The notes under the pieces are model-generated. The model did not search any database. It was given only the letters and a program-made list of their open reading frames with translations, and was not told the origin of the DNA. Shown here piece by piece: positions 6,004 through 37,665 of a DNA stretch of 41,225 bases. Made by a program: the position numbers and the translations under genes. This stretch comes from Anaerolineae bacterium. GTDB taxonomy: Bacteria; Chloroflexota; Anaerolineae; Aggregatilineales; Aggregatilineaceae. The stretch lies in contig JAGPFT010000001.1 of the NCBI GenBank assembly GCA_018056405.1, positions 1 through 41,225 of the forward strand, read 5' to 3'. Each line of letters starts with the position of its first letter. Position 1 is the first letter of the stretch.

Positions 6004-6077
6004 GCCAGACGGCAGAAACAAAAACGGGGCGCGCCCTGGGCGCACCCCGCTGCCGCCTCCACGCCAAGCGGTTCGCG

Positions 6078-7343: not shown

Positions 7344-7486
7344 GACCAGTCGCTCCTCGTTGCGCAGAAATCCGCCCTTGCACCAGGCATCTTGGCCCCA
7401 TCACCAACCGCTGACAGTGCGCCCTCGCAGGCGACGGCAGTCGGTTGCCTTCAGTATAACACGCGCAGGTGGGGACGTGCACACCG

Positions 7487-12053: not shown

Positions 12054-12083
12054 GTCCCTCCCTCACCGCTGACTGAACGTTGC

Positions 12084-12113
12084 GGTCGGGGCGTGCTCAT
12101 CCACGCCCCGACC
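12084..12113 (+). terminator. Perfect 12-bp GC hairpin after the SBP gene (intra-operon attenuator or mRNA stabiliser)
   Basis: GGTCGGGGCGTG-ctcatc-CACGCCCCGACC. There is no U-tract. Confidence 0.45.
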
Positions 12114-12142
12114 CACTCTGACACACGGGCGAACACACCGCT

Positions 12143-13171: not shown

Positions 13172-13203
13172 CCGGAACACGCTTGAGGGCATCAGGATCG
13201 ATC

Positions 13204-14082: not shown

Positions 14083-14085
14083 CCG

Positions 14086-15036
14086 ATGGCACTGGTGGAC
14101 ATTCAGAACCTGCGCGTGCAGTTCCACGTCGGGCGCGATGTGGTCTACGCCTTGCGCGGCATCTCCATGCAGGTCGAGCGCGGCACGCGCACCGCCATCG
14201 TCGGCGAGAGCGGCTCTGGCAAGACCGTCACGGCCACGAGTATGCTCCGCCTGCTGCCGCCCACTGCCCGCATCACCGAGGGGCGTATTCTGTTCCAGGA
14301 CGCCGATCTGCTGGCGCTGAGCGAGAACGAGCTGCACCGGATCAGGGGATCGCAAATCTGCATGGTCTTTCAGAACGCTGCGGCAGCGCTCAACCCGCTG
14401 TACCCAGTGGGCCAGCAGATTGCCGATGTGTATCGCCATCATAACGGCGGGAGCAAGCGCGAAGCCTGGCAACGAGCGGTTGAGGTTCTGGCCGCGACCG
14501 GCATCCCGCACCCCGAAGACCGGGCGCGCAGCTACCCCTTCGAATACAGTGGCGGTATGGCCCAGCGCGCAATGATCGCCATGGCTCTGGTCTGTTCTCC
14601 CCAACTGCTCATCGCCGACGAACCGACCAGCGGCCTGGACGTGACCATTCAGGTGCAGGTGCTCGACCTTATCCAGGAGGTAGTCGAGAAGCTCGGCGCT
14701 ACGCTGATGCTGATCTCGCACGACATCGGCCTGGTGTCGGCCATCTGCGACCGGGTGATCGTGATGTATGCCGGGACAGTGATGGAGACGGGCACCGCCA
14801 GCCAGGTGTTGGAGCGCCCAGCCAATCCCTACACCATCCGGCTGCTGGAATGTTTCGCGGGCACGAACGGCGAGGAAATGCCCTTCATCCCAGGCCGCGT
14901 GCCCGACCTGCGCGAGCAGTGGCAGGGGTGCAGCTTCGCGGGGCGCTGCCCGCGCGTGCAGGACCTCTGCTGGCGAGAGGCCCCTGCCGTCCGCCAAGTC
15001 GAGCCAGGGCATCACAGCGCCTGTCATTTTTCGTAG
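14086..15036 (+). CDS. ABC transporter ATP-binding protein (DppD/OppD-like)
   Basis: Walker A GESGSGKT, signature YSGGMAQR, Walker [14 protein letters not shown]-terminal oligopeptide-type extension with Cys residues. Confidence 0.9.
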
Positions 15037-15055
15037 TCTACCTGGGCTGGCTGTC

Positions 15056-16108
15056 ATGAATGCAGACGATGCATTGGTTGTTCAGAACGCAGTCAAGGTC
15101 TTCACGGTGCGCCGGCGCAGCCTCAAGCGCGTCAGCATGACCGCCGTAGATGATGTCTCGCTCACCGTCAGGCGTGGCGAGACGGTCGGGCTGGTCGGCG
15201 AGAGCGGTTCGGGCAAGTCCACGCTGGGACGGGCAATCCTGCGGCTGCTTGATCTGGACGGCGGCAAAATTCTCTTTGAAGGTCGGGAAATTCAAGGGCT
15301 GAGCGAGCGGGAGTTTCGCCCTCTGCGCGCCAAGATACAGATGGTCTTCCAGAACCCGGCTACCTCGTTCAACCCAACTATGACCATCGGCCAAACCCTG
15401 GTGGACGCCATGCGCCTCGCCAGGCACCTGACCCTCAAGCAAAAAGAGCAGCGGGCGCTGGCGCTGCTGGATCAGATGCAGCTTGACGAGCGCTTTGCGG
15501 CACTCTACCCCTACGAGATGAGCGGCGGCCAACTCCAGCGGGTGGCGTTGGCCCGCGCCCTGGCTCCAGAACCGGACTTCATCTTCCTGGACGAGCCAAC
15601 TGCCGCCCTGGACATGTCTGTCCGAGGGCAGATCATCAACCTGCTGCTGAGCCTGCAGCGGCAGAGCAGGCTGAGCTTCGTCTTCGTCTCGCACGATCTG
15701 CGCGTCATCCGCTACATCGCCAACCGCGTGTACGTCATGTACCTGGGCCAGGTCGTGGAGACCGGTACCAAGCGCACCGTATTCGAGACTCCGCGCCATC
15801 CCTACACCAGAGCCTTGCTGGCCGCCACGCTGATCGGGCAGGCCGAGCGCGGCGAGATGCGGCGCGCGGGGATGCTGGCCGGAGAAGTGACCCAGGAAGC
15901 GCCGGACTTCGCGGGCTGTAAATTGTACGGACGCTGCCGCGTGGCGGCAGATCGCTGCGCCCGCGAGCCACAGGCCCTGCGCGCTATCGCGCCGGATCAT
16001 TGGGCGCGCTGCTGGCGCGCCGAAGAACTGGCCCAGAGTGGCTGGCCTGCTGAGAGCAGCGCGGCGAAGGAAAGCCCGCCAACCGGCCCACAGCAGGCAA
16101 TCGTGTGA
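15056..16108 (+). CDS. ABC transporter ATP-binding protein (DppF/OppF-like)
   Basis: Walker A GESGSGKS, signature MSGGQLQR, Walker B FIFLDEPTAALD, RHPYTRALL motif. Confidence 0.9.
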   Translation: MNADDALVVQNAVKVFTVRRRSLKRVSMTAVDDVSLTVRRGETVGLVGESGSGKSTLGRAILRLLDLDGGKILFEGREIQGLSEREFRPLRAKIQMVFQNPATSFNPTMTIGQTLVDAMRLARHLTLKQKEQRALALLDQMQLDERFAALYPYEMSGGQLQRVALARALAPEPDFIFLDEPTAALDMSVRGQIINLLLSLQRQSRLSFVFVSHDLRVIRYIANRVYVMYLGQVVETGTKRTVFETPRHPYTRALLAATLIGQAERGEMRRAGMLAGEVTQEAPDFAGCKLYGRCRVAADRCAREPQALRAIAPDHWARCWRAEELAQSGWPAESSAAKESPPTGPQQAIV

Positions 16109-16149
16109 TATGTGATATTCATCGAGGCTTGTTATCTGGAGGGAATCCC

Positions 16150-17169
16150 ATGTTTTCCGAACTTGGCAGCGCCGACCTCGTAGGCATGTTCACGCACGAG
16201 TTGCGCCTGTGCAAGGTGCAGCCGGGCGAGAACGTGCTCATCTTTACCGACCCGCGTTTTCTGCACCCCGCCTATCCGCCCGCCGCGTTCGCGGCTGCGT
16301 CCAGCCTGGGGGCGAACGCCTACATCCTGGTCTCGCAGGGCGATCAGCGCTTTGATGACGCGCTTGTGCGCGCCGCCTGGCAGAACGCCGACCTGATCCT
16401 GGGTATGAGTATGCTGCCGCGCGGTATCGGCTCGTGGATGTACACCGATACGCATAACGCCGCGCTCAAGGCGGGCGCGCGCGTGCTGATGGTGCAGGAG
16501 CCGCTGGACGTGCTTAAGCGCATGTTGCCCACCGAGCAGGTACGTCGCAGAGGGCTGGCGGGGGCACAGCGTCTCCAGGAAGCCAAAGAGATCCATATCG
16601 TCTCCGCCGCCGGCTCAGACTACGTGCTGCGCAAGGATGAGCGCAAAGCTATGTATCAGTGCGGCATTGCCGACGAGCCGGGGCGCTGGGATCACTGGCC
16701 GTCCGGTCTGGTGGCGTGCGCGCCCCTGGAAGACAGCGCCGAGGGGCGCTACGTGATCGAGCCGGGCGATGTCTTGCTGGGGATGTGGCGTCACGCGCAG
16801 AGTCGCGTCGCGCTGACCATCGAGAAGGGAAAGATTGTCAAGATCGAGGGCGGCCCGGACGCCTACCTGCTCCAATCGCATCTGGAGCGGGCCGGTGACG
16901 AGGGAGCGTTCCGCTTCTCGCACGCGGGCTGGGGCATTGACGAACGCGCAGACTGGGGTCATGTGGGCATGGACTCAGAGTCGAAGTACGGCACGATTCT
17001 GGTGGCGATTGGCCGCAACACCTTCGACGCCCCTGCCCCCTATTGCGGGCTGGGTGGCAAGAATGTCTCAGAGGTCCACTGCGACATTTGCTGCCGCAAC
17101 ACAAGCCTGTACCTGGATGGCGAGCTGATCGTCGAGAACGAGCAGTTCGTCGCCAGGGAACTGGGCTAG
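16150..17169 (+). CDS. M29-fold metalloenzyme, NicX (2,5-dihydroxypyridine dioxygenase)/aminopeptidase-T-like; substrate unknown
   Basis: KRMLPTE, ADEPGRWDHWPSG, SHAGWG and EVHCDI (H-x-D) match my recollection of the NicX/M29 family. ATG 16150 has GGAGGG 6 nt upstream. The ORF track starts at GTG 16105, which forms a GTGA overlap with the preceding gene. Confidence 0.55.
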   Translation: MFSELGSADLVGMFTHELRLCKVQPGENVLIFTDPRFLHPAYPPAAFAAASSLGANAYILVSQGDQRFDDALVRAAWQNADLILGMSMLPRGIGSWMYTDTHNAALKAGARVLMVQEPLDVLKRMLPTEQVRRRGLAGAQRLQEAKEIHIVSAAGSDYVLRKDERKAMYQCGIADEPGRWDHWPSGLVACAPLEDSAEGRYVIEPGDVLLGMWRHAQSRVALTIEKGKIVKIEGGPDAYLLQSHLERAGDEGAFRFSHAGWGIDERADWGHVGMDSESKYGTILVAIGRNTFDAPAPYCGLGGKNVSEVHCDICCRNTSLYLDGELIVENEQFVARELG

Positions 17170-17298: not shown

Positions 17299-18834
17299 TT
17301 ATGAAGACATGCTCTGGGCCAGCGCGTCGAAAGAGGGCTGCAAGGCCGGGTAAAGACCCCTGTACACGGTGAAGAGCCGGTCGTAACGCTCGGCATTCAC
17401 CGCGTTGGGGTGATCAACCGTCCGCGTCTTGATCAGAGACACGGCTTCTTGGGCGGAAGCCCACAGTCCGCAGGCAACGCCCGCGACGATCCCCGCGCCG
17501 ACCGCGCTGGCATCCTCGCTGTGATCGAGCGTCGTCACCGGGCGCTTGAAGATGTCCGCCTGAATCTGCCGCCACACGGCACTGGACGACCCGCCCCCCG
17601 AAGCGTGAATGCGGTCGGGTTGGGCGCTGTTGCGCAGGATCAGTTCCAGTACATCGCGCAGGCTGAAGGTTACGCCCTCCATCACGCTGCGCACCATGTC
17701 CGCTTTTGAGGTGTGCAGCCCAATGCCGACGAACGTCCCCCGCGCATGGACATTGGTATAGGGGCAGCGCTCGCCCTGCAAATAGGGCAGGAACAGCAGC
17801 CCATTGGCTCCAGCGGGAGAGAGCGCAGCCTGGCAGCCCAGCAGATCATAGGCGTCAGTCTGCAGGTCTCTGGCCAGCCTCCACTCCAGCCCGCCCAGCG
17901 TATCCCGGAACCATTTCAGCGAGTTGCCCGCCGACAGGGTGACGCCCATCGCCACCCAACGCTCCGGCACAACATGGCAGAACACCTGAAGATTGGCGTC
18001 CGGGTTGTCCACAGCGTAACGGGTGCTGACCGTGACATTACCGCCGGTGCCGATCACAATGAGCACCACGTCGCTGTTGATCGCGCCGCCGCCAATCGTC
18101 TGCATCACAGCGTCTCCGCCCCCCGCGATGACCGGCGTGCCCGGCAGGAGGCCGGTTTCGGCGGCGATAGCGCCACCGACGGTGCCGGTGAACTCGCCTG
18201 ACTCAAAGGCGGGCGGAAACCACTCGCCGGGGATGTCAAGCAAGTCCATCAGACGATAGGCCCACTGGCGGGCGCGCACATCGAACAGGCCGGTGCCCGA
18301 TGCATCTGAGACATCGGTCGCCCTGTCGCCAGTCAGACGAAAGCGGAGATAGTCCTTGGGCAGCAGAACGGTCGCGATCTGCCCGTAGATCGCGGGGTCG
18401 TGATCACGCAGCCAGAGAATCTTGCCACCGGTGTAGCCGGGCAGCATGGCGTTGTTGGTATGGGCCACCAACTTACCCTTGCCGCCCACCCGCTCGTAGA
18501 TCGCCTGGCACTGCGGCGCGCTGCGTTGGTCGTTCCACAGGATGGCGGGGCGCAAGACTCGCCCCTGCCTGTCCAGCGCGACAAGGCTGTGCATCTGCCC
18601 GCTGAGGCCGACGGCCTGGATGGCAGCGGGGTCGGCCTGCGCCACAACGCGCCGGATCGACTCCTTGACCGCTACCCACCAGTCTTCGGGCTGCTGCTCC
18701 GCCCACCCCGGCTGTGGCACAGCGACCGGATATTCGCTGGACACCTTCGCCAGCACGTTCAGGTCGCGGTCCAACAGCAGGGTCTTGCAGTTGGTGGTGC
18801 CAACATCAATGGCCAGGATTAACGAGTTACTCAC
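17299..18834 (-). CDS. FGGY-family pentulose kinase (xylulokinase-like)
   Basis: ILAIDVGTTNCKTLLLD, GWAEQQPEDWW, HASGGGSSSAVWRQIQADIF. GTG 18834 has GGAG 5 nt upstream. The longest ORF begins at TTG 18870, which forms a TTGA overlap with the LacI stop. Confidence 0.85.
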   Translation of the reverse strand: MSNSLILAIDVGTTNCKTLLLDRDLNVLAKVSSEYPVAVPQPGWAEQQPEDWWVAVKESIRRVVAQADPAAIQAVGLSGQMHSLVALDRQGRVLRPAILWNDQRSAPQCQAIYERVGGKGKLVAHTNNAMLPGYTGGKILWLRDHDPAIYGQIATVLLPKDYLRFRLTGDRATDVSDASGTGLFDVRARQWAYRLMDLLDIPGEWFPPAFESGEFTGTVGGAIAAETGLLPGTPVIAGGGDAVMQTIGGGAINSDVVLIVIGTGGNVTVSTRYAVDNPDANLQVFCHVVPERWVAMGVTLSAGNSLKWFRDTLGGLEWRLARDLQTDAYDLLGCQAALSPAGANGLLFLPYLQGERCPYTNVHARGTFVGIGLHTSKADMVRSVMEGVTFSLRDVLELILRNSAQPDRIHASGGGSSSAVWRQIQADIFKRPVTTLDHSEDASAVGAGIVAGVACGLWASAQEAVSLIKTRTVDHPNAVNAERYDRLFTVYRGLYPALQPSFDALAQSMSS

Positions 18835-18866
18835 AGCGACTCCGTTCTCAGGCGGCGCAGAGGCCC

Positions 18867-19871
18867 TCAAATCCGGCGGCAGGAACGGCGGATGATCAGG
18901 CTGTCGCGCAGTACGATCCTGTGCGGCGGCTGGCGGCGCTTGTTGATCAGGTCCACCAGCAGAATCATCGCCATGCTGCCGATCTCATAGCTGGGCTGGG
19001 CGATAGTGGTGAGCGTGATCATCGCCGAGCAGGGAATATCGTCGTAGCCGACAATGGAGATGTCGTCGGGAATCCGGTATCCCTTCTCCTCAAGGGCCTG
19101 GCTGGCACCGAAAGCCATCAGGTCATTGGAGGCAAACACCGCCGTGAAAGGAAGCTCATCCCGCTCCAGGAACTTCTGCATCAGGTGATAGGCCCCTTCC
19201 TGCGTGGTATCCGCGCAGACTACCATCTCTTCGCGGTAGGGGACGCCCAGTTCCTCCAGACCACGCCGGTAGCCCGCCAGGCGCGAGATGGACGTGCTGA
19301 AATGGGGCGGGCCGCAAATGAACAGGATGTCGCGGTGGCCCAGGTTGAGCAGGTAAGTGGTCGCCTGGTAAGCTCCTTCTTCGTTATTGGAGGTCACCGA
19401 GCAGATATTCTTCAGATTCACTTCACGATCCAGAAAGACAATCGGGAACTGGCGGTCCACCAGGTCTTTGACCAGCGGGTTCACCGATTCCAGGAACGGG
19501 ATGTAGATGATGCCATCCACACCCTGGTCTATGAGGTGCGTGAAGTGACGTTTTTCCGCCTCAAACGCGCCGTTGGCGTTGCAGAGAATGACCTCGGCAT
19601 CGTGCACGCGAGCCAGGGCAGTGATACCCTTGATTAGCAGGGGAAAGTATGGGTTGGTGATGTCGGGGATCACCAACCCGACCCGGAGTTCCTGCTTGTG
19701 CTGAGCGGTATTCTTTAGCTCGTAGTGCAGTTCCTCGATGGCCGCCAGCACAGCCTGGCGGTTGAACTCGCTGACCGAAGGCTCGTTGTTGATCACCCGC
19801 GAGACAGTGGCGACCGACACGCAAGCTCTTTCAGCAACGTCCTTCATGGTAGGGGTTTTGTGATTGGCCAT
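18867..19871 (-). CDS. LacI-family transcriptional regulator
   Basis: 334 aa. HTH TMKDVAERACVSVATVSRVIN and a sugar-binding effector domain (VGLVIPDITNPYF, IVGYDDI). Confidence 0.9.
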   Translation of the reverse strand: MANHKTPTMKDVAERACVSVATVSRVINNEPSVSEFNRQAVLAAIEELHYELKNTAQHKQELRVGLVIPDITNPYFPLLIKGITALARVHDAEVILCNANGAFEAEKRHFTHLIDQGVDGIIYIPFLESVNPLVKDLVDRQFPIVFLDREVNLKNICSVTSNNEEGAYQATTYLLNLGHRDILFICGPPHFSTSISRLAGYRRGLEELGVPYREEMVVCADTTQEGAYHLMQKFLERDELPFTAVFASNDLMAFGASQALEEKGYRIPDDISIVGYDDIPCSAMITLTTIAQPSYEIGSMAMILLVDLINKRRQPPHRIVLRDSLIIRRSCRRI

Positions 19872-20161: not shown

Positions 20162-20839
20162 TTACCACACATACTTCTTATAATCGTTCACCAGCAGGTA
20201 GGATGGCTCCTCGTCCTCAATGATCTGCGGGAAGCGCGGCTGGTCTTCGTAGAATACGTTGTCGGTCTGATCGTCATTCACCGAACTGACCTCGCCCACC
20301 AAGACGGTGCCCGCTCCGGCCTCACCATAGAACTTGTGGAAGACGCCCGGCTCCAGAAAGATGCTCTCGCCGGGTGTCAGCACAACCTTGCCGCTCGCGG
20401 GAACCGTCCGCGCAATGGAGTCAATGCGCACAGTCACCGGTTTGTCAGTCAGGCGGAAGTCGCCATCGCCCAGGAACAGTTCGATAACCAGGTTGCCGCC
20501 GCCCCGGTTGATGATGTCCTCCAGTTTGAGGCGGTGGGTGTGCAGGGGCGTCACCTGATTTTCCTCGACGATGAGCACCTTCTCGCAGTAGGCTTTGCGC
20601 GTCTTGTGGACGATGCCATTGCGCAAATTGAAATTAGTCAGGCCGACGCGCTCGAAGTCCCCGCTGCCGAAGTCCGTAATGTCCCAGCCCAGTCCACAGG
20701 CCACGATCTCGGCCACTTCGTCACCTTTGCCGCGCCACTGGTCGGGCGACCAGTACGCCCAGGGCGGCAGCGGGAACTGCCTGGCTTGCAGGAAAGCGAT
20801 GGCGTGGGCGATAGCCCGGTTGATCTCACTGCGTTTCAT
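20162..20839 (-). CDS. D-lyxose/D-mannose ketol-isomerase-family cupin (long form, 225 aa)
   Basis: MKRSEINRAIAHAIAFLQARQF...WDITDFGSGDF...VTPLHTHRLKLEDIINRGGG...PGVFHKFYGE fits the Lyx_isomer cupin family. ATG 20839 is preceded by GGAGGAG. The 20840-20941 extension in the ORF track has no family counterpart. Confidence 0.7.
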   Translation of the reverse strand: MKRSEINRAIAHAIAFLQARQFPLPPWAYWSPDQWRGKGDEVAEIVACGLGWDITDFGSGDFERVGLTNFNLRNGIVHKTRKAYCEKVLIVEENQVTPLHTHRLKLEDIINRGGGNLVIELFLGDGDFRLTDKPVTVRIDSIARTVPASGKVVLTPGESIFLEPGVFHKFYGEAGAGTVLVGEVSSVNDDQTDNVFYEDQPRFPQIIEDEEPSYLLVNDYKKYVW

Positions 20840-20954
20840 GAGCGCACTCCTCCGGCGGACGCCGATACTCGAGACGATAAGCCCTATGGCCGGTTCTCCT
20901 CGGTATGCTTTCATTGTATGCAAAGCAGGGATCGAAATCAAGTAACATTGTGAT

Positions 20955-21098: not shown

Positions 21099-22007
21099 AT
21101 GCCAGCATCCTCCAACAAGAGACCGCTGGACCCGGCTGCCGATGCCGCGCTGCTGCGCGAGCTAAAGCTGGCGGCGATCCAGCAGCGGCGCAAGCTGCTC
21201 GCCCTGGGGCGCACCCTGCGCATCCGCCTGCATTATGGCGCGACGATGAGCAGCGTGGAGATTCTGACTGCGCTGTACAGGGTGTGGCTGCGCATTGATC
21301 CAGAGAATGCGGGCTGGCCGGAACGTGATCGCTTCGTCTTGAGCAAGGGCCACGCTGCCCCGGCTCTCTATGTGACCCTGGCCATGCGCGGCTTCTTCCC
21401 TGAAGACGAGTTCGCCAATTTCCGGCGGCTGCACAGTATCCTGCAGGGACATCCCGACCGCAACAAGACCCCCGGCGTGGACTGCTCGACCGGCTCGTTG
21501 GGTCAGGGTTTTCCGGTAGCGTGCGGGATGGCCCTCGGCGCGAAGGCTGACCACGCCCCCTTCCGCGTCTATACGCTGATCAGTGATGGCGAGTGCAACG
21601 AGGGATCGGTCTGGGAAGCAGCCCTCATCGCCGCCAACCTGAAGCTGGACACCCTGACTGTGCTGGTGGACTGGAACCGCAAGTCATCCTATGGGCCGAT
21701 GGAGGGCCGCAACGACATCGAGCCGCTGGCCGACAAGTGGCGCGCCTTTGGCTGGGCCGTGTTCGAGTGCGATGGCCATGACTTCGTGTCGCTCACGCGC
21801 GCACTGGCGGCAGCAGAACGAGTCAGCGGCAGGCCGGTGGTGCTGCTCTGCCACACTGTCAAGGGCAAAGGGATTCCCTTCGCCGAGACGCACCCGACGC
21901 GCTCCAATTTCGCGTTGACGCCTGAGCAAGACCAGGAAGCCGTTGCCTATCTGGACACTCTAGAGACGGAAATCACGGATGAGTCCTTCGCCCCAAGACA
22001 TCACTGA
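21099..22007 (+). CDS. Transketolase, N-terminal (TPP/pyrophosphate-binding) subunit of a split enzyme
   Basis: 302 aa. SKGHAAPALY, GHPDRNKTPGVDCSTGSLGQGFP, TPP motif ISDGECNEGSVWEA. Confidence 0.88.
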   Translation: MPASSNKRPLDPAADAALLRELKLAAIQQRRKLLALGRTLRIRLHYGATMSSVEILTALYRVWLRIDPENAGWPERDRFVLSKGHAAPALYVTLAMRGFFPEDEFANFRRLHSILQGHPDRNKTPGVDCSTGSLGQGFPVACGMALGAKADHAPFRVYTLISDGECNEGSVWEAALIAANLKLDTLTVLVDWNRKSSYGPMEGRNDIEPLADKWRAFGWAVFECDGHDFVSLTRALAAAERVSGRPVVLLCHTVKGKGIPFAETHPTRSNFALTPEQDQEAVAYLDTLETEITDESFAPRHH

Positions 22008-22920
22008 AGCCTACAGCGAGGCTCTGGTAGAGGTAGGTGCAGCCTACCCCAACGTGTTCGTCCTGGATGCGGACATCGCCGATTCGTGCCGCACCGAGCC
22101 ATTCTACAAAGCCTTCCCTGATCGCGCCTTCGATCTGGGGGTCGCCGAGCAAAGCCTGCCGACCATCGCCGCCGGGCTGGCGCTCGTCGGCAAAATCCCC
22201 TTCTACAACAGCTTCGCCGTATTCGCCGTCTCGCGGGGCGTGGACATGATCCGCCAGTCGGTGGCCTACAACCGCGCCAACGTCAAGATCGTGGGCCACG
22301 CAGCGGGCCAGTCAATGGGCTACACCGGCCCCAGCCATCACACCCTGGAAGACTTCGCCATCCTGCGGTCGCTTCCTCACCTGGTGATTCTCAGCCCGTG
22401 CGACGCGGTCGAGGCTCGGCAGATGGTCTGGGCGATGGCCGAGCACGACGGGCCGATGTACCTGCGCCTGGTTCGCGCAGCGGTGCCTCATGTCCACGCG
22501 CCGGATTACCGATTTGTGATCGGGCGGACGGAACGGCTGCGCGAAGGGGGCGATCTCTCGATCTTCGTCACGGGCGATCTGGTCGTGCTGGCGCTGGAAC
22601 TGCATGACGCGCTGCGCGCCCAGGGAATCAGCGCCCAGGTCGTCAACGTGCCCACGCTCAAGCCACTGCCTGCCGAGGAGATCGTCAGACACGGCAGCCT
22701 GACCAAGGGCGCGCTCACCCTCGAAGACCATAACATCTTCGGCGGGCTGGGCAGCGCAGTGGCGGAGATCTACGCGGAGCACCTGCGCAAGCCGGTGAAG
22801 CGGTTGGGCATTCCCGACACGTTCACCGAATCGGACGACGTTGCTGTCCTGCGCAGTGCCTACGGCATTAACCTGAACCATGCTCTACAGCAGGCGGCCA
22901 GCATCTTGAACAGGAAGTAG
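21979..22920 (+). CDS. Transketolase, C-terminal (pyrimidine-binding) subunit of a split enzyme
   Basis: 313 aa, overlapping the N-subunit gene by 29 nt. EAYSEALVEVGAAYPNVFVLDADI, DLGVAEQSL, GPSHHTLEDFAILRSLP. Confidence 0.88.
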   Translation: MSPSPQDITEAYSEALVEVGAAYPNVFVLDADIADSCRTEPFYKAFPDRAFDLGVAEQSLPTIAAGLALVGKIPFYNSFAVFAVSRGVDMIRQSVAYNRANVKIVGHAAGQSMGYTGPSHHTLEDFAILRSLPHLVILSPCDAVEARQMVWAMAEHDGPMYLRLVRAAVPHVHAPDYRFVIGRTERLREGGDLSIFVTGDLVVLALELHDALRAQGISAQVVNVPTLKPLPAEEIVRHGSLTKGALTLEDHNIFGGLGSAVAEIYAEHLRKPVKRLGIPDTFTESDDVAVLRSAYGINLNHALQQAASILNRK

Positions 22921-23020: not shown

Positions 23021-24874
23021 ATGAAGAAGTACCTCATTCTAGTGGCAGTCCTGTGTTTGGGGATGGCTCCCCTCCTGGCTGGCGTGCAGGCATCCCCGGC
23101 CCGCGCGCAAGAAGATTACACTATCGGCATTGTGCTGAAGTCGTTCTCCAATCCCTTCTGGCTGATGGCCAAGGCCGCCGCTGAAGCCGAAGCCGAACGG
23201 CTGGGCGTCGAAGCCATCGTGCTCGGCATCACCGAGGAAGGCGACTACGCTGAGCAGGTGGCCCAGATCGAAAACCTGGTGGCGCGCGGCGCTGACCTGA
23301 TCGTGGTCGTCCCGGCGGAGGCTTCGGCCCTGGTACCGGCGGTCGAGGCGGCTATCGAGCAGGGCGTGCCGGTCATCAACCTCGACTCGCCCATCGAGAC
23401 GGATAAGGTCGTCAGCTACATCGGCAGCGATAACGTCGAGGGCGGACGCATGGCCGGCCACTTCATCGCCGAGCAGTTGGGCGGCGAAGGCAAGGTCGCC
23501 GTGCTGCGCGGACGCCTGGGCAACCCCGTTGAACTCCAGCGCTACACCGGCTTCACCGAAGCCCTGGCTGAGTACCCCGGCCTTGAACTGGTCGCTGAGG
23601 GCGTCGCTAACTGGGAAGCTGACCAGGGCTACACCGTCATGGAAGACTTCCTCACCGCTCACCCGGACATCCAGGCCGTCTTCGCTGAGTCCGACCGCAT
23701 GATCCTCGGCGCAGCCCAGGCCGCCGCCGCTGCCAACCGCGACGACATCATCCTCGTCGGGTTGGATGGCATCGTCGAAGCCCTGCGCGCCGTCGCCGAT
23801 GGCACCATCTCCGCTGACGTGGCTCAGCGCCCTGACCTGATGGGCGAGTACGCCGTCAAGTACGGCCTCGAATTCCTGCAGACGGGCAAGATTGACCCGG
23901 TCATCACCACCCCCATGACCCTCGCCTTGCCCGATAACGTCGAACCCCTCATCGCTGCCTGGGAAGCCCTGGGCTTCACCGAGCCTGGTGAAGGGAAGCC
24001 AGCCGAAGACTTCACCATCGGCATTGTGCTGAAGTCGTTCTCCAATCCCTTCTGGCTGATGGCCAAGACCGCCGCTGAAGCCGAAGCCGAACGGCTGGGC
24101 GTCGAAGCCATCGTGCTCGGCATCACCGAGGAAGGCAACTACGCTGAGCAGGTGGCTCAGATCGAGGACCTGGTGGCGCGCGGCGCTGACCTGATCGTGG
24201 TCGTCCCGGCGGAGGCTTCGGCCCTGGTACCGGCGGTCGAGGCGGCTATCGAGCAGGGCGTGCCGGTCATCAACCTCGACTCGCCCATCGAGACGGATAA
24301 GGTCGTCAGCTACATCGGCAGCGATAACGTCGAGGGCGGACGCATGGCCGGCCACTTCATCGCCGAGCAGTTGGGCGGCGAAGGCAAGGTCGCCGTGCTG
24401 CGCGGACGCCTGGGCAACCCCGTTGAACTCCAGCGCTACACCGGCTTCACCGAAGCCCTGGCTGAGTACCCCGGCCTTGAACTGGTCGCTGAGGGCGTCG
24501 CTAACTGGGAAGCTGACCAGGGCTACACCGTCATGGAAGACTTCCTCACCGCTCACCCGGACATCCAGGCCGTCTTCGCTGAGTCCGACCGCATGATCCT
24601 CGGCGCAGCCCAGGCCGCCGCCGCTGCCAACCGCGACGACATCATCCTCGTCGGGTTGGATGGCATCGTCGAAGCCCTGCGCGCCGTCGCCGATGGCACC
24701 ATCTCCGCTGACGTGGCTCAGCGCCCTGACCTGATGGGCGAGTATGCCGTCAAGTACGGCCTCGAATTCCTGCAGACGGGCAAGATTGACCCGGTCATCA
24801 CCACCCCCATGACCCTCGCCTTGCCCGATAACGTCGAACCCCTCATCGCTGCCTGGGAAGCCCTGGGGTTCTAG
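23021..24874 (+). CDS. Sugar ABC transporter substrate-binding protein (ribose-binding-protein fold) with two tandem, near-identical binding domains
   Basis: 617 aa. Signal peptide MKKYLILVAVLCLGMAPLLAGVQASPARA, then two 289-aa copies of TIGIVLKSFSNPFWLMAK...VINLDSPI...YIGSDNVEGGRMAG...VAQRPDLMG joined by TEPGEGKPA. GAGGAG lies 9 nt upstream. Confidence 0.85.
   Translation: MKKYLILVAVLCLGMAPLLAGVQASPARAQEDYTIGIVLKSFSNPFWLMAKAAAEAEAERLGVEAIVLGITEEGDYAEQVAQIENLVARGADLIVVVPAEASALVPAVEAAIEQGVPVINLDSPIETDKVVSYIGSDNVEGGRMAGHFIAEQLGGEGKVAVLRGRLGNPVELQRYTGFTEALAEYPGLELVAEGVANWEADQGYTVMEDFLTAHPDIQAVFAESDRMILGAAQAAAAANRDDIILVGLDGIVEALRAVADGTISADVAQRPDLMGEYAVKYGLEFLQTGKIDPVITTPMTLALPDNVEPLIAAWEALGFTEPGEGKPAEDFTIGIVLKSFSNPFWLMAKTAAEAEAERLGVEAIVLGITEEGNYAEQVAQIEDLVARGADLIVVVPAEASALVPAVEAAIEQGVPVINLDSPIETDKVVSYIGSDNVEGGRMAGHFIAEQLGGEGKVAVLRGRLGNPVELQRYTGFTEALAEYPGLELVAEGVANWEADQGYTVMEDFLTAHPDIQAVFAESDRMILGAAQAAAAANRDDIILVGLDGIVEALRAVADGTISADVAQRPDLMGEYAVKYGLEFLQTGKIDPVITTPMTLALPDNVEPLIAAWEALGF
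23111..24871 (+). repeat. Tandem direct duplication, period 894 bp (copy 1 at 23111-23977, copy 2 at 24005-24871, 27-nt linker)
   Basis: By eye there are about 10 nucleotide differences in 867 bp, and 8 of them lie in the first ~165 nt of the unit. About 570 nt (23276-23847 versus 24170-24741) are identical. The duplication is in frame. Confidence 0.95.
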
Positions 24875-24890
24875 AATCACCCACCCTGAT

Positions 24891-24988: not shown

Positions 24989-25534
24989 ATGGCTATCAGC
25001 CGAGCCGAGTATGAAGCGGCGCGCAATCGCACCCTGGAAACCTATCAACGCGCTGCTATCACGATCACCGCAGCCGAGAAGGACGCCCTCGAGGTGGCAG
25101 ATTTCGGGCTGGGTGAACTGGAGCAGATCGGCGTTGAGCTGGTCACTTATATCAACACCGGGCGCGTGTGCGCCAAGGAAGTCGTCCTGTTTCCGGGCCA
25201 GATCTGCCCGCAGCACCGTCACCCGGCAGTTGGCGATCAGCCAGGGAAAGAAGAGACGTTCCGCTGTCGGTGGGGCAAGGTGTACCTGTATGTCGAAGGC
25301 CCCGCCACGACTCAGCCGCAGGCGACCGTGCCCGCCCATCGGCGGGCGCACTTCACCGTCTGGCACGAGATCATCCTGGAGCCGGGCGATCAGCACACAG
25401 TACCCCCTAACACACTGCATTGGTTCCAGGGCGGGCCAGAGGGCGCAGTGCTGTCCGAGTTCTCCACGCCCAGCACAGACTCCGCCGACATCTTCACCGA
25501 TCCTGATATCACCAGGCAGCCGGTGATATACTGA
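24989..25534 (+). CDS. D-lyxose/D-mannose ketol-isomerase-family cupin (short form, 181 aa)
   Basis: VADFGLGELEQIGVELVTYINTGRVCAKEVVLFPGQICPQHRHP...GKEETFRCRWGKVYLY...HWFQGG...STDSADIFTDP fits the short Lyx_isomer cupins. AAGGAGAGG lies upstream. Confidence 0.65.
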   Translation: MAISRAEYEAARNRTLETYQRAAITITAAEKDALEVADFGLGELEQIGVELVTYINTGRVCAKEVVLFPGQICPQHRHPAVGDQPGKEETFRCRWGKVYLYVEGPATTQPQATVPAHRRAHFTVWHEIILEPGDQHTVPPNTLHWFQGGPEGAVLSEFSTPSTDSADIFTDPDITRQPVIY

Positions 25535-25546
25535 CCGACAGCGCCA

Positions 25547-26590
25547 ATGGTGAGTCTATCATCGCGCTCAAGGCCGCCGGAAAGGAACCAGGCATTGTTG
25601 ACACAGAAAAGGTGGCAAGCATTGGCCAGTTTCCGCATCGAAAAGAGCTTGCTTGCTGCTGTCCGGCATCTTCTCAGGCAGCGCACGCTGTTCATGCTGA
25701 TCGTCCTGTGCGTGGTAGTCGGCTATCTGCTGCCCGTGTTTCTGACCACGCAGAATCTCCTGAATGTGCTGCGCCAGGTGTCTATCACGAGCATCGTCGC
25801 TGTCGGCATGACCTTTGTGATCATCACGGGCGGTATTGACATCTCGGTGGGTTCGACCGTTGCGCTGTCCGGCGTTGTGGTAGCCTATGCGCTCCGCGAA
25901 GGATACGGCCTGGAAATCTCAATCGTCGCGGCGCTGATCGTGAGCACCGCCGCCGGGCTGCTGAATGGAGCGCTTGTTTCCTACGGCAAGGTCATGGCTT
26001 TCGTGGCAACGCTGGGCACCATGAACCTGTTCCGGGGCACGGCCCTGATCGTCACCAACGGGCAGGCGATCTGGGGGCTGCCCAAGGATTTCGTGCGCAT
26101 CGGCACCGGCTATGTCCTGGGAATCCCCATCCCAGTGATCATCACCTTCGTGATCTATATCTCCGGGCACCTGCTGCTGACTCGTTTCACGTTTGGGCGC
26201 TATACGCTGGCCATCGGCGGAGACGAGGAGGCGGCGCGGCTCTGCGGCGTGCGGGTGCAGCGGATCAAGTTGCTGACCTATGGCTTCTGCGGCCTCATGT
26301 CCGGCATCTCCGGGGTCGTGCTGGCCGCCAGGCTGGGCAGCGGACAGCCCAGCACCGGCACCGGCTACGAGCTGACGGCGATAGCCGCCGCCGTCATCGG
26401 CGGCAACTCCCTGTCGGGCGGGCACGGCACCGTGTGGGGCACCCTGCTGGGCGCGCTCATCCTGGGCGTGGTCAGCAATGCCCTCAACCTGTGGGGAGTC
26501 GCGTCATTCTACCAGACCGTTGTGACAGGCCTCATCGTCCTGACTGCCGTACTCGTGGACAAGCTGAGAAGAAAACCCAACAGCAAGTGA
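25547..26590 (+). CDS. Sugar ABC transporter permease (RbsC-like, BPD_transp_2)
   Basis: 347 aa. NLLNVLRQVSITSIVAVGMTFVIITGGIDISVGS and IGGNSLSGGHGTVWGTLLGALILGVV. Confidence 0.87.
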   Translation: MVSLSSRSRPPERNQALLTQKRWQALASFRIEKSLLAAVRHLLRQRTLFMLIVLCVVVGYLLPVFLTTQNLLNVLRQVSITSIVAVGMTFVIITGGIDISVGSTVALSGVVVAYALREGYGLEISIVAALIVSTAAGLLNGALVSYGKVMAFVATLGTMNLFRGTALIVTNGQAIWGLPKDFVRIGTGYVLGIPIPVIITFVIYISGHLLLTRFTFGRYTLAIGGDEEAARLCGVRVQRIKLLTYGFCGLMSGISGVVLAARLGSGQPSTGTGYELTAIAAAVIGGNSLSGGHGTVWGTLLGALILGVVSNALNLWGVASFYQTVVTGLIVLTAVLVDKLRRKPNSK

Positions 26591-28931: not shown

Positions 28932-29291
28932 GCGTTTGAGAAGTGGCTCTCCTCACCCCAAACCCCTCCCCCACAAGGAGGTCAGGGGCGGACAGGTGTT
29001 GAGATCGGCTTATCGTCTGGGGCGGCTCTTTACTTTACCTCACCCCCGCTCGGCCTACTGACGCGGGCCTCGCCGCCCCTTCTCCGTCAACGGAGAGGGG
29101 GAAAGGCCGGGGGCGGGGCGAGGCCAGGGGGTGAGGTTAAGCGAGCGCCCTCTCAATGCTTCTCACGGTGCTGTCCGCCCCTGAACCCACAAGGAGGGAA
29201 GGGCCTGGAGTGCGCGCTTTTCTCCCTTCTCCCCTTGTGGGGGAAGGGCCGGGGATGGGGGGCAAACGGAGGTGCGGGACTTCTCAGACGG
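28932..29291 (+). mobile_element. Composite MITE-like repeat B (~360 bp) with inverted ends related to those of 20005-20152
   Basis: Left end GCGTTTGAGAAG (28932-28943), 4 nt after the GntR stop. Right end CTTCTCAGACGG (29280-29291), 10/12 complementary. Inside are the long-palindrome module CCTCACCCCC (29038-29047) / GGGGGTGAGG (29127-29136) and the hairpin CCCTTCTCCCC-ttgt-GGGGGAAGGG with tail CCGGGGATGGGGGG (29224-29262). Confidence 0.6.
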
Positions 29292-29340
29292 TCTCCGATC
29301 TCTGCGGTCTCCGCAACTTTCTAGAGAGGAACTGGTGCGC

Positions 29341-31095
29341 ATGATCTCCATTTCGCAGCGTCAAGACCTGATCCAGGCCGCCCAGGGGCACCAACCGCTC
29401 GACCTGCTCATTCGCAATGTCCGGTTGGTCAACGTCTACACCGGGCGCATCGAGCCGGCAGCGCTCGGCGTCCGGCACGGGCGCATCGTCTCGTTGGACG
29501 CCGGGGACTTCGAGACGGTGCAGACGTTCGACGCGGGCGGGCAGTATGCCATGCCGGGCTTCATTGACACGCACATCCACGTGGACTCCACGCTGATCAT
29601 CCCGGAAAACCTGGCTTCACTGATCGTCCCCGGTGGCACGACGGCCCTGTTCGTGGATCCGATGGAGATCGCCAACGTGGCCGGGCTGGCGGGCATGGAA
29701 GCGCTGCTGGCGAGCATGGCTGCCCTGCCCTACCACATCCTGATCGAGGTGTCGTCGCGCGTGCCCACCGCGCCCGGCCTGGAGACGGCGGGCGGCGAGC
29801 TAGACCTGAACGCCGTGCGCCGCGTGCTGGGCTGGGAGGCGTGCGTCAGCCTGGGCGAACTGGACCCGTCGAAGGTGCTCGGCCTGCGCGACGAGTACCT
29901 GGCCAAAGTGGAAGCGGCTCACGCCCTCAACAAGATCGCCAACGGGCACGCCGCCGGGCTGATGGGCCACGCGCTGGCCGGGTACGCTTGCGGTGGGCTG
30001 GCCGACGATCACGAGGCAGTAGACTACGAGCAGGCGCTGGCCCGGCTGCGCCTGGGGATGCCCGTGCTGGTGCGCGACGGCAGCACCGAGCGCAACCTGG
30101 AATTGATCCTGACCGGCGTCGTGCGCGAAGGGCTGGACACGCGCCACCTGATGTTTTGCACCGACGACAAACACCCCGACGACATCCGCGACGAGGGACA
30201 CATTGACTACCTGGTCAACCGGGCCATCGCCCTGGGCGTGCCGCCGATGCAGGCGATCCAGATGGCCACAGTCAACGCCGCCGTGCACTTCCGCGTGGAT
30301 CACCTGCTGGGCAGCCTGGCCCCCGGTCGCTGGGCGGATATTGTCCTGGCCCCCAGCCTGGAGACAATCCGGCCCAGCCACGTCTTCTTCAAGGGCGCGC
30401 CGGTCGCCCAGGGCGGCGTGCTGACCGTCCCACTGCCGCCCGCTAGCTATCCCGACTGGATTCGTCACACGGTCAGCGTGCAGCGCGGCATGGCGGCGGA
30501 CGACTTCCGGCTGGACGCGCCAGGGCCGTCGGCCCGCGTGCGGGTGATCGAGCTATACCCCGACCAGATTATCAACGAGATCGGCGAGGCGACCGTTCCC
30601 GTCGTGGAGGGCAGCGCCATCGCCGACCCAGCCCAGGACGTGCTGAAAATCGCCGTCGTCGAGCGGCATGGCAAGAACGGCAATATTGGTGTAGCCTTCG
30701 TGCGCGGCTTCGGCCTGAAGCGAGGCGCGCTGGCGTCGTCGGTGGCCCACGATCACCACAACATCATTGTCGCCGGCGTGGACGAGGCGGACATGGCCGC
30801 CTGCGTGCGCGCCATTCAGGACATGCAGGGCGGGCTGGCGATTGCCGCCGACGGTGCAGTGCTGGGCACGCTGCCGCTGCCGGTAGGCGGCCTGATGAGC
30901 GAAGCGCCCGTCGAGAACGTGATCGCCAACCTGGAAGCGATCACCGCCGTCGCCCACGAGCTAGGCTGCACGCTGCCCGCGCCGTTCATGACCATCTCGT
31001 TTATCTCTCTGCCGACCGTCCCCGAACTGGGGCTGACGGATAGGGGCCTGGTCAGCGTGCGCAATCACGCGCTGATCAGCCCCTTCGTTGAATGA
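29341..31095 (+). CDS. ade: Adenine deaminase (amidohydrolase superfamily)
   Basis: LLIRNVRLVNVYTG, PGFIDTHIHVDS (HxH), GGTTALFVDPMEIANV, SVAHDHHNIIVAG, and a C-terminal adenine-deaminase domain. ATG 29341 chosen because the 29272 extension lies in a repeat. Confidence 0.8.
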   Translation: MISISQRQDLIQAAQGHQPLDLLIRNVRLVNVYTGRIEPAALGVRHGRIVSLDAGDFETVQTFDAGGQYAMPGFIDTHIHVDSTLIIPENLASLIVPGGTTALFVDPMEIANVAGLAGMEALLASMAALPYHILIEVSSRVPTAPGLETAGGELDLNAVRRVLGWEACVSLGELDPSKVLGLRDEYLAKVEAAHALNKIANGHAAGLMGHALAGYACGGLADDHEAVDYEQALARLRLGMPVLVRDGSTERNLELILTGVVREGLDTRHLMFCTDDKHPDDIRDEGHIDYLVNRAIALGVPPMQAIQMATVNAAVHFRVDHLLGSLAPGRWADIVLAPSLETIRPSHVFFKGAPVAQGGVLTVPLPPASYPDWIRHTVSVQRGMAADDFRLDAPGPSARVRVIELYPDQIINEIGEATVPVVEGSAIADPAQDVLKIAVVERHGKNGNIGVAFVRGFGLKRGALASSVAHDHHNIIVAGVDEADMAACVRAIQDMQGGLAIAADGAVLGTLPLPVGGLMSEAPVENVIANLEAITAVAHELGCTLPAPFMTISFISLPTVPELGLTDRGLVSVRNHALISPFVE

Positions 31096-31251
31096 GCGCC
31101 AAGGAGGTGAGCCGCAGCGCACCACGCGCCAACAGAACAGCAGCGTTCGTTTGAGATCTCCAAGCTCCATCCCCTTCATTGGCCCTGACCTGCCCCGGCA
31201 GCCAGGGAAACGCGCAGCGTATGTGCATGTAGAAGAAAGGCAGTTTAACCC

Positions 31252-32265
31252 ATGAAAACCCGCAGTCTGATGACGCTCATCCTGGTCGTGGGCATCCTGG
31301 TCGCGGCGCTTCCTGCTGCGGCCCAGACGGAGCTGCCCAAAGTGAGAGTGGCGCTGATCCTGCCTGGTCGCGCTGACGATGTGTCGTGGAACCAGGCATC
31401 GTTTGAGGGCATGAACGCCGCCGTCGAAGCTCTGGAAGAGACCATAGAGGTCGAGCTGACAATCGTCGAGCAGGTCTACGATCCGGTGGACATCGAGCCG
31501 GCGCTGCTCGACTATGCGCAGCAGGAATACGACCTGATCGTCGGTCACGGCTTCCAGTTCCAAGAGCCGATCATCAAAGTGGCCGAGCAGTTCCCCGATG
31601 TGAACTTCGCCATCGGCACCGGCTACAAGTTGGCCCCCAATGTGGGCGTCTATGATGTCAAGCTGGAGCAAGGCGGCTACCTGATGGGCCTCATGGCCGG
31701 CTATCTGACCGAATCCAACATCGTCGGCGTGGTCGGCGGCGTGGATGTGTCGGAGATTCATCGCGGGCATGTCGCCTTCGTGCTAGGCGCAGAGGCAGCC
31801 AACGAGGATGTCACGGCACTGAGCAACTTCGTCGGCGACTTCAACGACCTGGCCGGGGCGAAGGAAGCCGCGCTCAGCCAGATCAAGGCGGGCGCTGATG
31901 TGCTGTGGCAGAGCGGTGACGGCGTCGGCATTGCCGTGATGGGAGCGTGCGCCGAAGAGGACGTTCTGTGTATGGGCAACGTCGCCAACCAGAACGACAT
32001 CGCCCCGGAGAACGCGCTGGCCAGCTTTGTCTACAACTGGGGCCCGGTGTACCAGACGATGATCGAGCAGACAGCCGAGGGGACCTTCGGCGACCAGTTC
32101 TACTGGATCGAGTTCGCCAATGAGGGCGTCTCGATTGTCTACAACGAAGACCTGATCGAAGACTACATCACCGAAGAACTGCAAGAGGTGCTGGACGAGG
32201 CCATCGAGGGTTTCGTCGAGGGCACGCTCGACCTGGGCGACCTGGACACTTACAAGCTGGAGTAA
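31252..32265 (+). CDS. BMP-family (Med/PnrA-like) ABC transporter substrate-binding protein, probable purine nucleoside/base binder
   Basis: 337 aa with a signal-like N-terminus. KVRVALILPGRADDVSWNQASFEG, DLIVGHGFQFQEP, VVGGVDVSEI. Confidence 0.8.
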   Translation: MKTRSLMTLILVVGILVAALPAAAQTELPKVRVALILPGRADDVSWNQASFEGMNAAVEALEETIEVELTIVEQVYDPVDIEPALLDYAQQEYDLIVGHGFQFQEPIIKVAEQFPDVNFAIGTGYKLAPNVGVYDVKLEQGGYLMGLMAGYLTESNIVGVVGGVDVSEIHRGHVAFVLGAEAANEDVTALSNFVGDFNDLAGAKEAALSQIKAGADVLWQSGDGVGIAVMGACAEEDVLCMGNVANQNDIAPENALASFVYNWGPVYQTMIEQTAEGTFGDQFYWIEFANEGVSIVYNEDLIEDYITEELQEVLDEAIEGFVEGTLDLGDLDTYKLE

Positions 32266-32277
32266 GCCTTAACAGCG

Positions 32278-32306
32278 GGGGAAGGCGGGGAATATGCGCC
32301 TTCCCC
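32278..32306 (+). terminator. 10-bp hairpin after the BMP SBP gene, followed by TTGTTGGGG
   Basis: GGGGAAGGCG-gggaatatg-CGCCTTCCCC, 13 nt after the stop. Confidence 0.45.
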
Positions 32307-32533
32307 TTGTTGGGGTCGTCAGGGATCAGTCGTCAGGTCGCAGCCCTTAGTTCGCAGGGCCAGACTCCCGAGTCTGCGCAGACTTCGGAAGCCCCAAGCA
32401 TGGCCGCCAGGTCTGAGATACTGCGAGCATTGGAAACTCCCCTGATCCCTGCAACCGATCAGGGCAGTCACAGCAAAATCCGCCGCGTGTCAGCCTGCTC
32501 GTAGGGGCGCATCGCCATACGTCCCTACGGGGA

Positions 32534-32627
32534 CTTCACCCCCGCCCGGCCCACTGATGCGGGCCTCGCTGCCCCCTCTCCATGTTGAAGAGGGGGCGAG
32601 CCGGGCGCAGCGAGGCTGGGGATGAGG
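32534..32627 (+). repeat. Third copy of the ~95-nt long-palindrome module, inside the ABC operon spacer
   Basis: CTTCACCCCCGCCCGGCCCACTGATGCGGGCCTCGCTGCCCCCTCTCC...GAGGGGGCGAGCCGGGCGCAGCGAGGCTGGGGATGAGG is collinear with 29038-29136. Confidence 0.75.
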
Positions 32628-32698
32628 TAGAACAACGCGCACGTTTGATGCAATCGCCCTGGACAACCAATCTGCTCGCACGCGCGAATGAGGAGCCT

Positions 32699-36305: not shown

Positions 36306-36313
36306 GGCAGCGC

Positions 36314-37540: not shown

Positions 37541-37665
37541 AACCATCAACGCTCAGCCGTCAGCGTTCAGCTTTCGGCCAGAAGAGGGCGGTCACAAGGC
37601 TGGGGCATTGGCCCCTTCAGGGCGCGAAACTCAAGGCTGCTCACCAAGACGCAAAGGGATTGCTT

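Follow-up and report, generated by a model that had tools for sequence, protein, structure and literature searches.

The question raised by this locus is why one bacterial gene should carry the same sugar-binding domain twice in almost the same letters. The gene lies on a stretch of 41,225 nucleotides (nt) from an Anaerolineae bacterium (the complete NCBI contig JAGPFT010000001.1), which was analysed as a whole and is referred to below as the window. It encodes a substrate-binding protein of the RbsB type, 617 amino acids (aa) in length, in which two repeats joined by a short linker follow a single N-terminal signal or anchor region (Table 1). The close likeness of the repeats could reflect a duplication of very recent date, an error of assembly, or an older arrangement in which the copies are kept alike. 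The evidence makes it probable that this is a genuine two-domain binding protein, an old inherited design whose repeats have been homogenised by recombination.

Near-identical repeats and concerted evolution

The repeats were located by direct self-matching at a period of 894 nt, at which 857 of 867 nt are identical. The ten differences fall at repeat positions 6, 8, 12, 64, 133, 153, 162, 163, 741 and 864, and the encoded domains (D1 and D2) differ at four residues: Y33F, A52T, D75N and N85D. The first 163 nt of the repeat hold eight of the ten differences and are followed by an identical run of 577 nt (23274-23850). If the ten differences were spread uniformly, an identical run of at least 577 nt would have a probability of P = 1.7e-4. 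The linker is unlike the 27 nt that precede copy 1 and unlike the 27 nt that follow copy 2. The arrangement is therefore one of repeat, spacer and repeat, and not one of two full 894-nt units.

The original prediction, made from the letters of the DNA, had described two 289-aa domains in one open reading frame (ORF) with the 9-aa linker TEPGEGKPA. This is borne out by the ORF, the period matching and two separate Pfam matches. The predicted differences (about 10 of 867 nt, and the aa changes Y/F, A/T, D/N and N/D) agree exactly with those found, and the cluster of eight differences at the 5′ end does precede an identical run, given earlier as about 570 nt. The proposed 894-bp duplication stands as regards its period and its frame, but the unique 27-nt spacer means that the duplicated unit is shorter than 894 nt. 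An antisense ORF of 613 aa (23039-24880, minus strand) mirrors the gene and its internal repeat; it was set aside as most likely a by-product of high-GC coding.

Evidence on the history of the repeats comes from a sister species of the window, represented by a 163-kb contig (L002) and a 1.14-Mb contig (L010). These are 89% identical over the locus, have a common period of 882 nt, and agree at 28 of the 30 nt of the linker. Within either genome the 852-nt repeats are 98.1-99.2% identical, whereas any copy compared between the two genomes gives 92.4-92.7%. There are 52 sites that are strain-specific in both copies, 18 singletons, and two sites that are copy-specific in both strains, both of them at the 5′ edge. 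The differences between copies are scattered through the repeat interior. As the linker is shared and the strain-specific sites occur in both copies, the duplication is older than the split of L002 and L010, and the copies have been homogenised since. On these alignments, the near-identity in the sister lineage is concerted evolution and not recent duplication. Both contigs are probably long-read assemblies, with Flye-style names, contigs of 0.16-1.1 Mb and frameshifted genes, and these signs make assembly collapse an unlikely cause of the pattern.

A further relative (L018, with the linker GEAVEE) has halves that are 90.3% identical. Its differences range from 1 to 21 per 100 nt, and its longest identical run has P = 0.003. 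This gene appears to be an intermediate, and its mosaic of dense and empty stretches is the pattern that patchy conversion tracts would leave behind.

The proposed mechanism is homologous recombination between the 0.87-kb direct repeats, through gene conversion and/or unequal crossing-over, which would overwrite one repeat with the other. The repeat interiors would thus stay 98-100% identical, and the edges beside the unique linker and flanks would keep copy-specific differences. The same recombination would be expected to yield one-domain deletion alleles, and such alleles appear to exist in the species. Recombination between the repeats would in this way account for the likeness of the copies, for the differences kept at their edges and for the one-domain alleles alike. 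Concerted evolution by RecA-dependent gene conversion is known for tufA and tufB in Salmonella and for the intragenic repeats of surface proteins. The likeness to the tufA/tufB type is that copies within a genome are closer than orthologs, divergence is kept at the edges, and copy number shifts by unequal exchange. The window differs in that its units are whole ligand-binding domains in one gene, 27 nt apart.

The window species itself is represented by a second two-domain assembly from another sample (L001), which is 98.5% identical to the window in nt and has an identical linker. The copy-specific alleles at the repeat edges (positions 6, 8, 12 and 864) are common to both assemblies. Between them, seven interior sites are strain-specific in both copies and four edge sites are copy-specific, a site pattern that fits concerted evolution.

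Copies could also be alike because they are young, if a one-domain gene in the lineage of this strain had only very recently been duplicated in tandem and in frame, or amplified in an unstable way. The small number of differences (10 in 867 nt, with a synonymous divergence, dS, of 0.014) favours such an origin, as do seven contigs of the same species, 98-99% identical in nt, with a one-domain gene of 319 aa at the locus. However, the 27-nt linker matches neither flank and is not the junction of a simple duplication. Both the junction and the edge alleles are common to a second strain that differs by 1.5%, and three differences in the first 12 nt point to an older divergence of the edge. In the sister species, the shared linker predates a locus divergence of 11% although the copies are 98-99% identical, so near-identity is not evidence of youth. 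A recent duplication is regarded as improbable.

The original prediction had left the choice between a very recent duplication and ongoing gene conversion. The shared junction, the sister species, the diverged relatives and the linker speak against the former, and L002/L010 and L018 speak for the latter. It had also raised an unstable amplification caught in one isolate. The same junction in the independent assembly L001 and the same design in the sister species L002/L010 contradict the restriction to one isolate, while the seven one-domain contigs of the species lend the idea of instability some support.

Two-domain and one-domain forms among relatives

A protein search returned full-length two-domain relatives of 611-648 aa at 72-82% identity (P0002-P0009), fragments that span the linker (P0010-P0012) and one-domain relatives of 340-348 aa. 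The named relatives are metagenome-assembled genomes (MAGs) of Anaerolineales, Anaerolineae and Chloroflexi. The two-domain genes of this orthologous group are P0001-P0012, P0124 and L018, and they hold the same operon position wherever the context is readable (L002, L010, L011, L012, L013 and L018). Three of these loci, L011, L012 and L013, belong to species-representative genomes; L013, a contig with a length of 3.68 Mb, comes from a Microflora Danica Nanopore MAG (PMC12313526).

In a tree of the domains, P0004, P0007, P0008 and P0009 group D1 with D1 and D2 with D2. In the corresponding DNA, from these three genomes, the halves have diverged to 75-78% nt identity, with no identical run longer than 35 nt. 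The comparison of D1 with D2 gives a dS of 1.1-1.6 and a ratio of nonsynonymous to synonymous divergence (dN/dS) of 0.07-0.11, and the orthologous comparisons of D1 with D1 and of D2 with D2 give a dN/dS of 0.04-0.09. Such low dN/dS at a dS above 1 means that both halves have long been under purifying selection. A long stretch of identical aa in P0002 was considered as a conversion tract and rejected; at the DNA level the third codon positions differ and identical runs do not exceed 35 nt, and the stretch is attributed to purifying selection.

The two-domain form extends beyond this group. In a one-domain search of 1.84 billion representative proteins, at least 38 clusters among the top 150 are of about 575-680 aa and have two matched stretches. 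Two or three domains are also found in other RbsB-like subfamilies, whose internal identity is 29-99.6% when the proteins are split into halves or thirds. Among P0028, P0029, P0033 and P0013/P0014, which belong to unrelated subfamilies, internal copies are 99.6%, 95.8% and 92.9% identical, and one protein has three domains at 83-86%. These near-identical copies in unrelated subfamilies indicate that homogenised multi-domain binding proteins recur outside the orthologous group. Such tandem proteins are apparently common in sequence databases and uncharacterised; a literature search for tandem RbsB-like binding proteins found no paper that describes them and gave only permease-fused tandems of the GlnPQ type. 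The earlier view that this is not a described arrangement thus agrees with the literature search. Its unusual status largely falls away, as the two-domain form is common in the orthologous group and widespread in RbsB-like proteins, and the same architecture at syntenic loci speaks against a novelty of one isolate.

A one-domain ortholog with split-transketolase neighbours was also seen on a contig labelled as a Candidatus Saccharibacteria MAG (L014). This bin is probably contaminated, because the operon is of the Chloroflexota type.

It is possible, although doubtful, that the duplication occurred repeatedly, with the window, L002/L010, L018/P0012, P0002 and P0004/7/8/9 lineages each derived from a one-domain gene. 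For the window, P0003 and P0002 the domain tree groups D1 with D2 by protein, with one-domain proteins interspersed, as separate origins would predict. The linkers also vary in length from 5 to 15 aa, and the two or three domains of unrelated RbsB-like subfamilies (29-99.6% internal identity) show that duplications do recur. On the other side, all lineages agree in their domain boundaries and in the composition of their linkers, and some linkers align, namely those of L018 and P0012 and those of the window and P0002. The window linker FTEPGEGKPAED resembles the P0002 linker FTEAGAEEAAAED and aligns with the Pro/Glu/Ala/Gly-rich linkers of orthologs. Clustering by protein is, moreover, what conversion produces, and conversion is demonstrated in L002/L010. 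Separate origins bear only on the deep history of the group and leave the conclusion on the window unchanged.

One-domain genes of the window species provide a second line of evidence. The cluster of proteins at 90% identity that contains the window protein also holds two one-domain proteins of 319 aa (P0121 and P0122). At the DNA level, one-domain alleles occur on seven contigs from seven samples (L003-L009), which are 98-99% identical to the window in nt and have the same flanks. In all seven the 5′ edge has the alleles of copy 1, and position 864 has that of copy 2. This is the expected product of repeat-by-repeat recombination that deletes one repeat and the linker, and it equally matches what an assembler would give on skipping the loop. 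Logan contigs, to which one of the seven belongs, are expected to break at unresolved branches, which hints that true one-domain alleles exist. An exact search of JGI metagenome contigs for the 27-nt linker gave no hits, a negative that carries no information on the one-domain samples, as the collection searched does not return L003 and L006-L009 themselves. The protein P0122 is a mosaic: it has the N75 allele, which is otherwise found only in copy 2 of the window, with copy-1-like alleles elsewhere. This is consistent with exchange between copies or with a collapsed assembly. Since the present flanks cannot give rise to the linker and the same design is found in relatives, the two-domain form is read as the ancestral one, and the one-domain genes as deletions derived from it or as collapsed assemblies.

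An assembly artefact would require that a single true copy was turned into a false tandem by a spurious loop or by merged strain variants. Most contigs of the species are indeed single-copy, the window is a 41-kb draft contig, and all retained differences could be phased at a k of about 127. A false loop would not, however, make a unique in-frame linker rich in Pro, Glu and Gly that is identical in an independent assembly and similar to the linkers of orthologs. Copy-specific single-nucleotide differences at the edges are reproducible across assemblies, and the same architecture is present in relatives that are probably long-read assemblies and in the Microflora Danica Nanopore MAG L013 (PMC12313526). 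An artefact of this kind is considered very unlikely, and the tandem itself is well supported in the available sequences by a unique linker that is reproduced in two assemblies.

Assembly does bear on the perfection of the repeats. The window is a draft contig and L001 is a SPAdes node at approximately 3x coverage. In the window, no retained difference is more than about 125 nt away from another difference or from unique sequence. Differences at this spacing can be phased by a de Bruijn graph with k of at most 127, and the perfect identity of the core is therefore verifiable only from reads; the 577-nt identical core could be partly a short-read artefact.

Several points weigh against an old and homogenised tandem. 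An assembler that walked one repeat edge twice would also give identical interiors and would place the allele of a strain in both copies. The concerted signal in the window species and its perfect 577-nt core are thus not independent of assembly, given that the window and L001 are of draft, short-read or undocumented origin. The long-read origin of L002 and L010 is itself undocumented and is deduced from contig naming, Mb-scale contigs and frameshifts. Seven of the nine assemblies of the window species are one-domain; this may be the usual allele of the species, with the two-domain allele in principle a derived one. The linkers are brief, low-complexity sequences, and the window, L002 and the diverged lineages may or may not go back to a single ancestral duplication. 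The function proposed for the two-domain protein draws on its sequence, its predicted structure and the analogy with GlnPQ.

Predicted fold, ligand site and export

Both repeats encode complete binding domains. The Pfam profile Peripla_BP_4 (PF13407) matches the protein in two stretches (E 4e-141, 469 bits against a gathering cut-off of 35.1), the better of which covers profile positions 1-256 of 258. The RbsB equivalog model of NCBIfam also matches in two stretches, with 417.7 bits against a cut-off of 337. The ribose-binding protein (RBP) of T. tengcongensis (2ioy) was matched by phmmer with E 8e-58. The AlphaFold2 model of the 617-aa protein, a check proposed with the original prediction, shows two confident domains with a predicted local distance difference test (pLDDT) score of about 90 each. 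The mean pLDDT is 88, and the linker residues 321-328 are disordered, with pLDDT below 50. The predicted template modelling (pTM) score of 0.50 suggests that D1 and D2 have no fixed mutual orientation. Both domains are predicted to adopt the type I periplasmic-binding-protein fold, with two alpha/beta lobes and a hinge. In a Foldseek search of the PDB with this model, the best match is 2ioy (TM score 0.85, 39% identity), and 2dri of E. coli RbsB has a TM score of 0.83. Every match spans a single domain, and no solved tandem type I binding protein was returned by that search.

The ligand site was compared through ten residues which we take to be the ligand contacts of E. coli RBP, from the work on 2DRI; its sequence has the expected residue at each position. 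Every member of the clade has N F W D S R W S/A D Q at the aligned positions of each of its domains, and the choice between S and A agrees between D1 and D2 of each protein. The identity of these positions argues against a difference in specificity, and it suggests that D1 and D2 keep the same predicted ligand contacts with no sign of specialised halves. Four of the ten positions differ from E. coli RBP (F16W, R90S, F164W and N190S/A). Together with the neighbouring genes for lyxose isomerase, xylulokinase and transketolase, these differences suggest a sugar other than ribose.

At the position aligned to E. coli N190, P0007 and P0008 have Ala in each of their domains, and the other proteins have Ser in each. 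The residue is thus paired across the domains even though these share only 75-78% nt identity, and both binding sites of one protein would seem to change together.

At the N-terminus, AlphaFold2 predicts a hydrophobic helix at residues 2-21 and a disordered stretch at residues 21-30. In the alignment, most orthologs have a lipobox (L-x-[GS]-C) and a long Pro/Glu/Ala tether, as in a lipoprotein. The window protein lacks the lipobox cysteine, with V standing where orthologs have C. The cysteine is also missing in the sister lineage (L002/L010; P0003 and P0124) and in L018. The lineages that lack the lipobox are those with domain repeats that are 90-99% identical. The protein is presumably exported or membrane-anchored, and the earlier description of two complete RbsB-type domains behind one N-terminal signal is supported in so far as this signal is predicted.

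Operon context and known tandem receptors

The two-domain gene lies in a putative sugar-import operon next to genes of pentose metabolism (Table 1). The order of binding protein, permease and ATPase is the same at orthologous loci. The permease is a separate ORF that begins approximately 670 nt past the TAG stop codon of the binding-protein gene, with another gene in between. Its true start is probably downstream of 25547, because its orthologs are of 303-322 aa. In alignments with CUT2 ATPases that have two nucleotide-binding domains (NBDs), such as those of the RbsA/YtfR/AlsA type, the ATPase covers just their N-terminal half (2-234 of 492), and its orthologs at the corresponding loci have the same half-size form, at 256-260 aa. 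The transporter with a single permease and a single NBD that had been proposed downstream is thus present, as one permease gene and one half-size ATPase.

Table 1. Annotated features around the two-domain binding-protein gene, in window coordinates.
Feature	Coordinates	Strand	Basis
Xylulokinase	17299-18870	-	TIGR01312 XylB, 505.6 bits against a cut-off of 380; synteny
LacI-family regulator	18867-19871	-	LacI and Peripla_BP domains; synteny
D-lyxose/D-mannose isomerase	20162-20941	-	Pfam Lyx_isomer, E 4e-89
Split transketolase (N-terminal subunit 21099-22007; C-terminal subunit 21979-22920)	21099-22920	+	Synteny
Two-domain RbsB-type substrate-binding protein gene, 617 aa	23021-24874	+	ORF; stop TAG 24872-24874
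N-terminal signal or anchor region, aa 1-30, LLAGVQASPARAQ	23021-23110	+	AlphaFold2 helix, ortholog alignment
Repeat copy 1 (domain 1, D1), aa 31-319	23111-23977	+	Period matching
Unique in-frame 27-nt interdomain linker ACCGAGCCTGGTGAAGGGAAGCCAGCC, TEPGEGKPA	23978-24004	+	Unlike both flanks
Repeat copy 2 (domain 2, D2), aa 329-617	24005-24871	+	Period matching
Cupin, 181 aa, weakly like D-lyxose isomerase	24989-25534	+	Pfam Lyx_isomer, E 2.5e-5
CUT2-type permease, RbsC-like	25547-26590	+	BPD_transp_2; RbsC and AraH models
Half-size ABC ATPase, single NBD, 256 aa	26602-27372	+	ABC_tran

The gene for the 181-aa cupin always lies between the binding-protein and permease genes at orthologous loci, and the cupin has no match in NCBIfam. 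It is a second, unusual isomerase-like protein within the transporter operon. The lyxose isomerase on the opposite strand scores 254 bits against NCBIfam NF051472, which is under the cut-off of 350 bits; its start is likely the ATG at 20839, which would give a protein of 225 aa as in orthologs. The split transketolase is syntenic in L002, L008, L010, L014 and L016. The importer probably takes up a pentose such as D-lyxose, given the neighbouring lyxose isomerase, xylulokinase and split transketolase genes.

Further from the operon, two ORFs have no Pfam match at E<=1e-5: 5868-7523 (551 aa) and 16105-17169 (354 aa), the second of which comes after an ATP-binding cassette (ABC) transporter operon of the Dpp/Opp type (10446-16108). 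A block that resembles purine salvage (29272-39017) lies downstream, with an adenine deaminase, an amidohydrolase, and FAD and 2Fe-2S subunits like those of xanthine dehydrogenase. It also encodes a nucleoside ABC transporter of the Bmp/PnrA type, with a double-NBD ATPase and two permeases, and its GC content rises to 0.69-0.72.

The closest functional parallel is the amino-acid importer GlnPQ of Lactococcus lactis, in which the tandem domains bind independently, without cooperativity, and the transport rate is set by the length of the linker (PMC8025302). These domains have been argued to raise the local density of loaded receptors (PMC8025302). In both systems one polypeptide holds two binding domains, with a short flexible linker between them, for a single ABC importer in hosts without a true periplasm, and the picture of independent domains agrees with the AlphaFold2 model of the window protein. 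The differences concern topology and ligand class. The domains of GlnPQ are fused to the transmembrane domain, whereas the tandem of the window is a separate gene product with a stop codon before the permease. The former are type II (class F) amino-acid binders that differ in specificity and affinity; the latter belong to the type I sugar binders (PF13407), share the same predicted contacts and are encoded by repeats that evolve in concert.

Three further comparisons place the window protein among known receptors. Each of its domains is a complete member of the same fold and family as the single-domain RBPs (2ioy and E. coli RbsB, 2dri), of which the solved chains have one domain where the window protein has two. 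In actinomycete CUT2 fusions of permease and binding protein (P0032 and P0040, approximately 650 aa, PF13407 with PF02653), Peripla_BP_4 is likewise joined to a transporter module. These fusions combine one binding domain with the permease, whereas the window has two fused binding domains and a separate permease, and they suggest a family that is prone to domain fusion in monoderm bacteria. Sensor kinases of the BvgS type carry two tandem periplasmic Venus-flytrap domains outside the membrane, which are of type II, mutually diverged and part of a signalling protein. The tandem of the window is a transporter receptor and not a signalling protein.

The presumably exported protein consists of two domains of the RBP fold joined by a short flexible linker and would serve the adjacent CUT2-type importer. 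Two equivalent receptor sites on each exported or anchored molecule would raise the density of binding sites near the transporter. With a homodimeric permease and ATPase, one domain would dock at a time and the second would raise the local density of loaded receptors.

Tandem binding domains are themselves known; what is new is a tandem that is free of the permease, belongs to the sugar class and evolves in concert. Multiple binding sites per ABC importer have usually been treated as a trait of permease-fused systems such as GlnPQ, and here they occur in a separate receptor of the RbsB class. Genes of this kind are probably reduced to one domain in short-read assemblies, and the architecture is likely to be under-counted. 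As a tentative extension, free tandem sugar-binding proteins might form a widespread and uncharacterised receptor class in Chloroflexota and other bacteria, in which intragenic conversion enforces a selected pair of equivalent sites and recombination rapidly tunes the copy number (one to three domains), adjusting the uptake capacity of symmetric half-size CUT2 importers. The locus offers a natural series of one-domain genes, near-identical two-domain genes, a 90% mosaic and genes diverged to 75-78%. Such a series would lend itself to tests of what the second domain contributes to uptake, and to studies of how gene conversion and the escape from it shape domain repeats in bacteria.

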